DNA of 22,216 nt from a virus (Duplodnaviria > Heunggongvirae > Uroviricota > Caudoviricetes): the IMG/VR virus record IMGVR_UViG_2681813161_000004, one strand, 5' to 3'. The position numbers were made by a program, and so were the translations under genes. The first letter of the stretch is position 1. Every line of letters begins with the position of its first letter. Under the pieces are notes generated by a model that saw only the letters and a program-made list of their open reading frames with translations, searched no databases and had not been told where the DNA came from. Positions 6,664 to 10,900 of the stretch are shown here, in pieces.

Positions 6664-6766
6664 CGTATCTGGGTTATAAAATTCAGCTAATCGTGATGCC
6701 TGCAGTGGCTTTCTTCATCACAATGAGGTGTACTGGCAATAGCGGACACTACCATTTGTTCTTTTT

Positions 6767-7672
6767 TTAAGCAGCCATCTGATGATATTTTTCCCTGAAG
6801 GCTGCCGGGGAGATATTCCCCAGACGAGAGTGACGACGCTGACGATTGTAGAAAATCTCAATGTATTCCCGTATTACTGAGATGGCTTCATCCCGGTTAT
6901 TAAAACGATAGTGGCTCAGGCTCTCATTTTTCAGCGTTCCCCAGAAGCTTTCCATCGGAGCGTTGTCGTAACAGTGACCTTTACGCGACATTGATGTTTT
7001 CAGACCAGACTGCTCCTGTATGACCCGGTAATCGTATGCGCAGTACTGTGAACCTCGATCAGAGTGGTGGATTAGCCCGGCAGGTGGGCGCTGGCTCCTG
7101 AGCGCCATAAACAGGGCTTTACCTGTCAGCTCTTTTGTCATGCGCTCTCCCATGGCGTAGCCGACAATTTCGCACGTATAAACATCTTTGATGCCAGCGA
7201 GGTACAACCATCCCTCCTGTGTGGCAACATACGTCAGGTCCGCCACCCAGACCTGATTTGGTGCTGTAGGAGCGAACGTCTGGTTCAGCAGATTTGGCGC
7301 AACTGGCAGATTGTGGTTCGGGTTCGTAGTCGCTCTGAACTTGCGTTTCTGCTTACAGCGTAGCCTTAGCTCCTTACGAAGACGTGCCAGTCGGTCACGA
7401 CCAACGATGATGCCATTCTCTGCCAGCTCCGTCTGGAGCCGCCGGGTTCCATATGTTTCGCGAGTGCGGATATGTGCCACCTTAATCTCCAGTTTTAGCC
7501 GCTCATCACTTTGTTTTCTGTCTGAGGGTTCATGCTGTACCCAGTTGTAATAACCGCTCCTGGATACACCAAATACCTGACACATCGCTTCAATGGGAAA
7601 TTGTTGTCGCCATTGTTCGATTAACGCGTATTTTTCAGCGACTCCTGTGCAAAATACGCTGTTGCTTTTTTT
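6767..7672 (-). CDS. IS3-family transposase OrfB (DDE catalytic domain), expressed as an OrfAB fusion by -1 frameshift on the A7 run (plus 7666-7672)
   Basis: The -1 frame is open from the slippery site (KKSNSVFCTGVAEKYALIEQWRQTFPIEAMCQVF...) through ...HSDRGSQY...CYDNAPMESFWGTLKNE..., the DDE/integrase signature; the ORF track lists only 6767-7585 from the first Met. Confidence 0.85.
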   Translation of the reverse strand, partial: KKSNSVFCTGVAEKYALIEQWRQQFPIEAMCQVFGVSRSGYYNWVQHEPSDRKQSDERLKLEIKVAHIRTRETYGTRRLQTELAENGIIVGRDRLARLRKELRLRCKQKRKFRATTNPNHNLPVAPNLLNQTFAPTAPNQVWVADLTYVATQEGWLYLAGIKDVYTCEIVGYAMGERMTKELTGKALFMALRSQRPPAGLIHHSDRGSQYCAYDYRVIQEQSGLKTSMSRKGHCYDNAPMESFWGTLKNESLSHYRFNNRDEAISVIREYIEIFYNRQRRHSRLGNISPAAFREKYHQMAA

Positions 7673-7923
7673 AATATATCTCGCTCAAGGCGAGCTTCAT
7701 TTAACGCCTTACGCAGTTGCAGAATTTCAGATTCCAGTTCAGCCACCGTGCGGGAACCAGGAGTACCGAGCCCTTTTCTGGCGGCGGTAACCCATTGTCC
7801 TAAAGTGCCTTCAGGAAGGGATAATCGGGAAGCGCCTTCACTGATCGAAAGTTGATTTTCAAGAACCGTTCTGACAGCTTCGGCTTTGAACTCTTTAGAG
7901 TAACGTTGGTTTTTTCTGCTCAT
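7621..7923 (-). CDS. IS3-family transposase OrfA (HTH/leucine-zipper)
   Basis: 100-aa ORF MSRKNQRYSKEFKAEAVRTVLENQLSISEGASRLSLPEGTLGQWV...LKKATAYFAQESLKNTR. Confidence 0.9.
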   Translation of the reverse strand: MSRKNQRYSKEFKAEAVRTVLENQLSISEGASRLSLPEGTLGQWVTAARKGLGTPGSRTVAELESEILQLRKALNEARLERDILKKATAYFAQESLKNTR

Positions 7924-7979
7924 TATTAGCTCCTTCTGATGCCATTCTATTTCAGGAAGGAGTGTCCGTTAAACTCAGG

Positions 7980-10900
7980 CTACCTCACAACAACCAGCAA
8001 ATCGCTGATACTTGCTGTGGGATACCAGCCATTTACCAGCCATGCCGATACAGAAAACTCCAGCGTCATGTGACCGTGACCGGCAGGCATATCAATAACA
8101 CCCGTATATATCAGCGTATTATCCAGGGTCGTTCGGTTATAAATTTCAGCACCGTTTTTCTTCACTATCAGGCTGCATGACGAATAAATATTGTTATTCT
8201 TCCGCTCATGTTTAGCACCGCGAAACGCCACCGCGGGAATAACAATTTGCCGATCAAACGGCTGATCGTCATAAACCCTGACGGTAATGGTCCCTGATGG
8301 CCACCTCTCCGGTGCCCGGGAGTCCCGTGGGAAAGGTTTGCCCACTGTTTTAACGAGATCGCCTTCAATCTGGTTCGCGGACAATTTTCCCAGAACCCGA
8401 CAGTTCTTATTAATCGTGACGTTGTTGAGCGTCCCGGAGTTCGCGTTCACGTTACCGCTGATATCGGCATTTTTCGCCGTCAGCCGTCCGCCAGGTGTCA
8501 GGGAAAATGCCGGAGGATTACCGCCGCTGGTAATGGTCGGAGCCGTCAGGCGTTTCAGGAACACGTCGTTCATGAATATCTGATCGCCCTGACCAACAAA
8601 CATCGGCTTTGTGTTGCCATTCGCAGGATTAATCATCGCAATCCTGTCTGCCGCCAGCAGCACCTGACTCTGCATTCCTGCTGGCGTATTCTCAATACCG
8701 GCACCGATACCCGCAATATAAAGGCGTCCGTCCTTCATCTGTTGCAGCTTCACAGCCCACATGCTGTTCAGGTTATTATTTGTATCAACCTGAACTTTCT
8801 GTATCTGCTGGATTGCAGCACTCTGATTTTCCAGTTTTTTATTGACGGTTTGCGTGATTTCATTGCTGACATTCGTAATGGACGTCCTGATTTCAGTCAG
8901 GTCCGGCGCAAGCTGACCGTTATCAATCTGCGTCCACAACTCCTTGCCGAGATGCGTGTTATTGATCAACCCTTTATAAAAACTCAGATAACCTTCCGCA
9001 TCATCGCTCGCCCGACCGACGGCCTCCACAAATGCCGATTTGCCAACGGTGTTCACACTGCGAACGTAAAAATAATAATCATGGCCCGGCCTGATATTGA
9101 TACTGGCGGCTATCCAGTACAGCGCCGTGCCAAGATAGCGGGCGCTGGTTTCAACCTGCCTGATATCCGCAATCCGCTTTTCCGAAAACCAGAACTCAAA
9201 CTGCACCGTCGGGTCGTATACAGCCAGTTTCGGGACCGCCGTTATCTGAAAATACCCCGGTATCAGTTCAATAGTGACAGGCGCTGCCGGTGCCGCAATC
9301 CGGAACGATACCGACGCCGGATCGCCCTGCTGCCCCCGGGCATTTACCGCCCGGACTGTCAGACTGTAATTCCCCAGCGCCAGCTGCCTGAAGCGGTATG
9401 TGGTTTCCGTCGTCCTGGCTGTGCTGACCAGCCGCTCACTGCCGTCGTCCGCTGCCACGGTCAGGCGAAGCAGGAAGCTCACACCCTTCACCACCTTCGG
9501 CGTGTCCCATCGCGCCAGCACCTGATATTCCCCGCTGTCTGCGGTGACTTCGGCGGTCAGATGCTGCACCGCTGGCGGCGTGACACCATTCACCGTGCCG
9601 CGCCGGTCACCGTCAAAGTGTGCCCCGTTATCCACGATGGCCTCTTTTTCCGGCACATGCTGCACGGCGGTGATGGCATACGTGCCGTCGTCGTTCTCAC
9701 GGATACTCACGCAGCGGAACAGGCGCTGGCGCAGCGTCGGCAGCTTCAGCCCCCACACGCTGTATTCTGCAACGCCGTCAGGAACCCGGCTCACTTTCAC
9801 CTTCACGCCGTCGGTGACGGACTGAACCTCCACGCTGACCGGATTGCCATTTCCGTCAACCAGGCTTATCAGCGTGGTACAGGAGGACGGCAGCGTGATT
9901 TCACGGTCGAGCGTCAGCGTCCGGGTCTGGCTGTTCACCGCCAGTACGCGACCACCGGTGCTGATACCGGCATAATCATCATCGCAGATTTCAATGACAT
10001 CACCCGGTACATGGCGAAGCCCTTCTGCGCCGACGCTGAAGTCCACGGTCTGCGTTTCCAGCAGTTCCGTTTTAATCAGCCACAGCCCGGCGCGGTGCGC
10101 CTGTCCCCGGCTGGTACAGCCAAAGGCATCCATCTTCGTGACGTTACGACCGTAACGGAGAATGGCCTGCGCGTCCTCCACAAGCTCTGTCGCCGTCTCA
10201 TGACCGTTGTCCGGATCAATCCAGTTCACCTCAACGACATTATGGCGGTCCTTCAGGGCGCTGAAGCTGTAGCGGAACGGCGCGCCATCATCCGGCATCA
10301 CCACATTACTGCGGTTATAGGTCCACACTTTATCCGACGGTCGGTCCTGCACGAACGTCAGCGTCTGCCCGTTCCATACCGGCATACAGCGCATCGCCGA
10401 GCAGAAATCACTGAGAACATCCCACGCCTTACGCTGTGTGGTCAGGTAAGCGTTACAGGTGATGCGCGGCTCCGTGCCGCCAAATCCGTCCGGCACTGAC
10501 TGGTCGCAGTACTGGCCGATGACATACAGCGCCCATTTGTCCACATCTGCCGCACCAAGACGTTTCCCCATGCCGTAGCGCGGATGAGTGAGCATGTCCC
10601 ACCGACACCAGGCCATGTTGTTGCTGTATGCTGGCTTAAGCGTTCCGTCCCAGATACCGCTGTATTGCCGCGTCTGCGGGTTATAGTTCGACGGCACCTG
10701 CAGAATGCGCCCGCGAAGATGATAATTGCGACTCACCTGCTGGTTACCGAACTGCTCTGAATCCACCTGCACGCCGACCAGCGCCGTGTTCGGGTAGCAC
10801 TGTTTCACATCGATGATTTCGGTGTACGACGACCAGAGCGTTTTGTTCTGCAGCTGGTCTGTGGTGCTGTCCGGTGTCATCCTGCGCATCCGGATATTAA

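Follow-up and report, generated by a model that had tools for sequence, protein, structure and literature searches.

IS600 is an established insertion sequence (IS) of Shigella and Escherichia coli, and two of its insertions in E. coli strains that make Shiga toxin (STEC) come closest to the one we report here. In STEC O121:H19, a copy of IS600 interrupts lacZ and can be removed again by an IS-excision enhancer (PMC9397093). In STEC CFSAN027350, SJ3 and 2009C_3612, another copy occupies the lambdoid junction between J, the gene for the tail-tip/host specificity protein, and lom, which encodes an Ail/Lom outer-membrane protein. The third term of comparison is gpJ, the product of J itself, in which the receptor-binding domain forms the C-terminus (PMC11101478). 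The DNA analyzed here is the IMG/VR virus record IMGVR_UViG_2681813161_000004, a stretch of 22,216 nucleotides from a member of the Caudoviricetes (hereafter, the window), in which a complete IS600 is located on the minus strand at positions 6724-7987, inside the reading frame of J, between codons 1148 and 1149, and not past the native stop codon of this gene. We consider it very probable that, taken as a whole, the locus records a single IS600 transposition that truncated J in an ipaH-carrying, lambda-like prophage of Shigella flexneri, as part of neutral decay.

When set against these systems, the window element is the same as IS600 of Shigella and E. coli throughout, and its insertion site alone is particular. 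As in lacZ of STEC O121:H19, a simple insertion of IS600 into a coding sequence is seen, which precise excision could in principle revert; the target, unlike lacZ, belongs to the tail genes of a prophage that bears other lesions as well. The insertion at the J-lom junction in STEC involves the same element in the same orientation and generated a 3-bp duplication as well, but it is an independent event: its duplication is CCC, its flanks are approximately 90% identical to those of the window, and its position, equivalent to window 6664/6665, falls after the stop codon of J, on the edge of the terminator stem, with 59 bp separating it from the window site. This STEC spacer insertion is common to eight genomes (CFSAN027350, locus 4242-5505, and seven similar ones).

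With regard to identity, all 1264 bases of the window element (1264/1264, 100%) match a copy on the S. boydii plasmid NZ_CP026767.1 that is labelled "IS3-like element IS600 family transposase", while the values over these same 1264 bp for annotated copies are 100% or 99.8-99.9%, and copies of IS600 at least 99% identical are present in 752 plasmid records. The element is IS600 itself, intact, with an identity that is far beyond chance. Its ends were set by aligning both extremities of five independent copies found in unrelated contexts, namely the window, the S. boydii plasmid, a DUF4406 gene of E. coli O121, an lpfE gene and a STEC prophage. Homology among these copies begins exactly at 6724 (TGAGGT) and stops exactly at 7987 (ACCTCA), and all five are bordered by 3-bp direct repeats, CAA in the window and TGG, CAC, AAC and CCC in the others. 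The two CAA copies, at 6721-6723 on the lom side and at 7988-7990 on the J side, correspond to a lone CAA at the empty site discussed below. A first-pass annotation made from the letters of the sequence had described an IS600-like element of the IS3 family between J and lom, with its left end at 6724; this description agrees with the 1264-bp identity and with the five-copy alignment, and the 3-bp duplication it proposed looking for is indeed there. Its right end, which had been placed at 7977, is instead put at 7987 by the five copies and by the inverted repeat.

The structural features of an IS3-family element are likewise all found. The termini are imperfect inverted repeats of the TG...CA type, with boundaries common to the five copies; the J-proximal repeat (left inverted repeat, IRL), upstream of orfA, covers 7961-7987, and the lom-proximal repeat (right inverted repeat, IRR) covers 6724-6750, both being 27 nt long and pairing with 70% complementarity. 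The transposase genes share the orientation of J and lom. On the minus strand, orfA (7621-7923) encodes 100 amino acids with a helix-turn-helix (HTH) domain and matches positions 1-86 of the NCBIfam transpos_IS3 model, and the orfB frame (6767-7585) encodes 272 amino acids with the rve/DDE domain and matches the same model with 332.8 bits; rve and HTH Pfam domains are in fact annotated on genes identical to these. An A7G slippery run at 7665-7672 (minus strand) is the presumed site of a programmed -1 frameshift, a predicted event that would join orfA and orfB into a 385-aa OrfAB with no internal stop, and 385 aa is also the OrfAB length annotated, with the label "programmed frameshift", on identical copies. 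A promoter-like TTAACG-17-TAGAAT in IRL, upstream of orfA (7944-7972, minus strand), is a consensus match only. Based on its intact sequence and on the many copies of IS600 in Shigella and STEC, we infer that the element would be active in transposition.

The consequences of the insertion for J become evident at the J-proximal end. The J open reading frame (ORF) of the window (7980-11429, minus strand) ends with a TAG at 7982-7980, and because IS600 homology reaches 7987 this codon lies inside the element, as part of its inverted repeat. In silico removal of 6724-7990, that is, the IS and one CAA, reopens the J frame to the native TGA at 6685-6683, 35 coding nucleotides beyond the insertion point, and yields a native J of 1159 amino acids with the C-terminus ...LLVVVMKKATAGITIS, which is that of E. 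coli CFSAN029787 and S. boydii. The restored site is found uninterrupted, with 99.8% DNA identity, in seven E. coli genomes (CFSAN029787, for example), and at such sites gpJ is annotated as a single coding sequence of 3480 nt (1159 aa). When the window was compared by blastn to the CFSAN029787 prophage, position 6723 joined 7985/7988 directly. The S. boydii J (ABB66234.1), a 1159-aa protein found on 90 contigs, is identical to the window J at 1146 of 1148 residues and has VVVMKKATAGITIS as its C-terminus. Because both the empty-site alleles and that of S. boydii run uninterrupted to 1159 amino acids, J is truncated in the window between codons 1148 and 1149. The protein it encodes consists of native residues 1-1148 followed by one Arg: codon 1148 (GTG, Val) is retained by coincidence, as IS600 starts with TG, and both the Arg codon (AGG) and the TAG that follows are supplied by the element. 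The last 11 residues, MKKATAGITIS, are lost. Their codons and the native TGA are still recognizable, from the restored translation and the empty site, as an orphaned 3' end of J at 6683-6720 (minus strand), so that the 38 nt between IS600 and the terminator (6720-6683) are the stranded end of J and not a spacer.

In the series of events that we propose, one transposition would have landed an intact copy of IS600 in the 3' end of the J gene, duplicating CAA. Translation of J would now enter the inverted repeat of the element by 8 nt and halt at the TAG, and the last 11 codons of J, together with its true stop and the native terminator, would have been left beside lom, which has kept both its ribosome-binding site and an unaltered protein sequence.

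The truncated protein is still recognized as a lambda-type tail-tip protein by the NCBIfam lambda_TipJ model (NF049904; 2322 bits compared to a cut-off of 1950), although the match ends at position 1152 of 1163, having started at position 1. It does not contain a complete receptor-binding domain as modelled by Pfam Ig_GpJ_C (PF12421, 135 positions), which covers positions 2-124 in the window J compared to 2-135 in the intact relative. When eight intact J proteins, including those of lambda, 434, Fels-1 and Stx phages, were aligned to the window allele over their last 100 residues, identity ranged between 34 and 58%, and the best conserved stretch was xKKxxxGIxxx; the full-length KK..GI tail was present in all eight. 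The restored C-terminus also aligns end to end with the solved receptor-binding domains of lambda gpJ (PDB 8XCJ, 8XCK and 8IYK; E 1e-80) and A8 gpJ (PDB 9WCA; E 2e-103), and shares with both the terminal KK..GI.. tail that the window protein is missing. Because the lost residues are the most conserved stretch and form the end of the receptor-binding Ig-like domain, inactivation of J is probable; the truncated tail-tip protein would most likely fail to fold, to form trimers or to bind its receptor as it should, and is probably non-functional. A single-sequence AlphaFold model of the restored receptor-binding domain reached a pLDDT (predicted local distance difference test score) of 40.8, too poor to be used. 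With regard to the receptor, the closest solved structure by sequence to J 7983-8730 is "A8 gpJ 713" (PDB 9WCA), and A8-type J chimeras use OmpC, not LamB (PMC11338833); by analogy, the ancestral receptor of the window prophage might be OmpC.

Of the alternatives to be weighed, the one that survives best is a functionally silent truncation, in which the last 11 residues would be dispensable and the J protein with its added Arg would still build a working tail tip. The loss concerns, after all, only 11 of 1159 residues and leaves residues 1-1148 untouched, and the receptor-contacting loops L1-L4 of lambda are located elsewhere in the domain (PMC11101478). We nonetheless find such an outcome improbable, as the missing tail belongs to the Pfam model of the domain, is the most conserved segment of a domain that otherwise evolves fast, and, beyond its completeness in the eight homologues, was reached by tblastn, with 245 phage records matched and the alignments among the matches listed extending to the last or second-last residue.

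Shigella genomes are known for a pattern in which IS elements erode the structural genes of prophages around cargo genes that are retained, and the window fits well into it. Lesions were called relative to the intact prophage of the enteroinvasive E. coli (EIEC) relative CFSAN029787. Gene L (12780-13476) is frameshifted between 13322 and 13279, with reference residues 1-66 and 52-232 aligning in different frames. In the G-T tail chaperone, the T part (16821-17146) has a 1-nt deletion near 17055-17056, on the two sides of which reference residues 1-30 and 32-109 fall in different frames. The side tail fibre gene stf (4213-5994) is frameshifted near 4897-4903, and a deletion of approximately 245 bp at 4685/4686 has fused it with the region of a DUF4376 gene. 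Homology to the intact prophage ends at approximately 19480-19492, within the head-tail joining gene, of which only amino acids 67-123 are left; an element of the IS66 family cuts this gene at approximately 19492 and follows the remnant (ORFs at 19567-19986, 19983-20333 and 20364-21956). The prophage is defective, a remnant, irrespective of the IS600 in J. The lom gene (6016-6615, minus strand) is intact, with 199/199 amino acids identical to the EIEC relative, and so is ipaH (2283-4034), which encodes a 583-aa type III secretion system E3 ligase of the IpaH family (562.8 bits compared to a cut-off of 550).

IS600 is one of several lesions in an already defective prophage, and the most plausible interpretation of the insertion is neutral decay affecting tail genes next to the cargo that was kept, lom and ipaH, and not a regulatory device. 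Three points weigh against this interpretation. Among the lesions, the insertion of IS600 may have come first and been the one that inactivated the prophage; the indispensability of the last 11 residues of J is inferred from comparison with homologues; and the 1264 bp of the element may have displaced a signal for lom located within the 3' end of J. The element is a known one and so is its behavior, the S. flexneri genomes that carry the insertion are already public, and the case represents ordinary prophage decay, a further instance in which the expansion of IS elements in Shigella wears down the structural genes of prophages and leaves cargo such as lom and ipaH intact. The finding raises no new question. 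It matters mainly for annotation, as IS600 lies inside J and the stop codon of J is supplied by the element, and the 1149-aa "host specificity protein J" of S. flexneri (EFW62131.1) is the product of an IS-truncated pseudogene.

Less probable than a silent truncation, and very unlikely in our view, is an adaptive insertion that alters lom and stf expression in the lysogen, either through an outward or hybrid promoter or by uncoupling lom from late transcription. In its favor, a near-consensus -35 element, TTGCCA (6739-6734), faces outward at the lom-proximal end of IS600, lom is perfectly conserved, and two independent insertions of the same element have occurred in the same orientation in different lineages, 59 bp from each other. 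However, a standard promoter scan returned no promoter at the IS-lom junction and none on the minus strand between IS600 and lom, and when the lom-side junction was scanned under relaxed settings the best candidate was TTGCCA-18-AAGAAA, whose -10 partner does not have the conserved final T. With 8 matches out of 12 to the consensus, this candidate was rejected as unsupported, and the outward hybrid promoter envisaged in the first-pass annotation finds no support in it. Furthermore, a native terminator-like hairpin with a T run persists past the true J stop and before lom (6639-6664, minus strand; hairpin 6664-6645). Because this hairpin stands between IS600 and lom, a transcript leaving the element outward would encounter it first; lambda carries a comparable hairpin between J and lom. 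A second terminator-like hairpin, downstream of lom, was identified by the hairpin scan at 5968-5989 (minus strand), which agrees with the flanking terminators that had been noted for lom at the outset, as does the Shine-Dalgarno motif GAGAGG ahead of the ATG at 6615 with the statement that lom keeps its ribosome-binding site. Within IS600, our scan found no terminator-like site on the minus strand, which leaves read-through from J with no obvious block. A scan of 5800-8300 against Rfam returned no known RNA family. The fact that stf is frameshifted anyway also argues against this explanation, and a regulatory role of the IS600 insertion is unsupported.

There is next to no probability left for the placement given in the first-pass annotation, in which the element would sit in the J-lom spacer, 2 nt past an intact J stop, leaving J unaffected and only lom and stf expression liable to change: the J ORF does stop at 7980-7982 and a true spacer insertion of IS600 exists in STEC CFSAN027350, but that stop codon is covered by IS600 homology and by the inverted repeat up to 7987, the empty sites and the S. 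boydii J continue for 11 codons that are now beyond the IS, and the Pfam and NCBIfam profile matches end 11 positions early. What we found is ends that fall within the coding sequence of J, the very result that the annotation had named as contrary to its placement.

Equally negligible is an assembly artefact, in which the repeat would have caused a copy of IS600 to be wrongly joined to the end of J. Several draft contigs do end inside IS600, and the S. flexneri CDC 796-83 assembly joins the far side of the element to other genes (DUF1133) and not to lom; yet the window and a 4.2-Mb contig of GCA_001188055.2 each contain the two junctions with a perfect 3-bp duplication, the J/IS600 junction recurs in six assemblies, and the two flanks rejoin as a perfect empty site. 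Over 9450 bp that include both junctions, the contig of GCA_001188055.2 in fact matches the window with 100% identity, and the J/IS600 junction is 100% identical in all six NCBI assemblies, this contig and S. flexneri CDC 796-83 among them (for the identity of this strain, see PMC5429569 and PMC6397287). The exact 1149-aa J protein is recorded for S. flexneri, EFW62131.1 of CDC 796-83 included. In a scan of contigs from one genome per species the exact J/IS600 junction was absent, as expected, given that such a set merges Shigella with E. coli. What we describe is real, inherited and lineage-specific, and not a misassembly. In CDC 796-83 itself (AERO01000018.1, locus 6451-9450), DUF1133 genes and a further IS orfA come after the J/IS600 junction in place of lom, an arrangement that is due either to recombination between IS600 copies or to a repeat-induced misjoin.

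The second, independent insertion of IS600 in STEC, in the same orientation and 59 bp away, hints at a local target preference. That the 3' end of J and the J-lom junction of lambdoid prophages are a preferred target of IS600, or a site under selection, is a very unlikely generalization; if true, IS600 insertions at this junction might disable the tail tip or re-wire lom while keeping the cargo. E. coli 7_12_30A was considered as a third insertion at the J-lom junction and was discarded, as its IS600 lies inside stf of another prophage. Some elements of the IS3 family insert next to sequences that are similar to their own ends. In the window, the target CTTCATCA-CAA (6710-6723) resembles the IS end and its duplication, CTACCTCA-CAA (7977-7990), at 9 of 11 positions as judged by eye, a resemblance that could equally be due to chance.

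On the side of the window opposite to the IS66-family element, ipaH lies beside the prophage's tail-fibre end. Its ortholog in EIEC CFSAN029787, ipaHe, carries a frameshift according to the annotation, and the portion of the window before 3087 is without homology to it. Further out, positions 1-1910 hold two copies of IS1 in direct orientation, 1212 bp apart and 99% identical over the 300 nt compared, the first of which is cut by the window edge.

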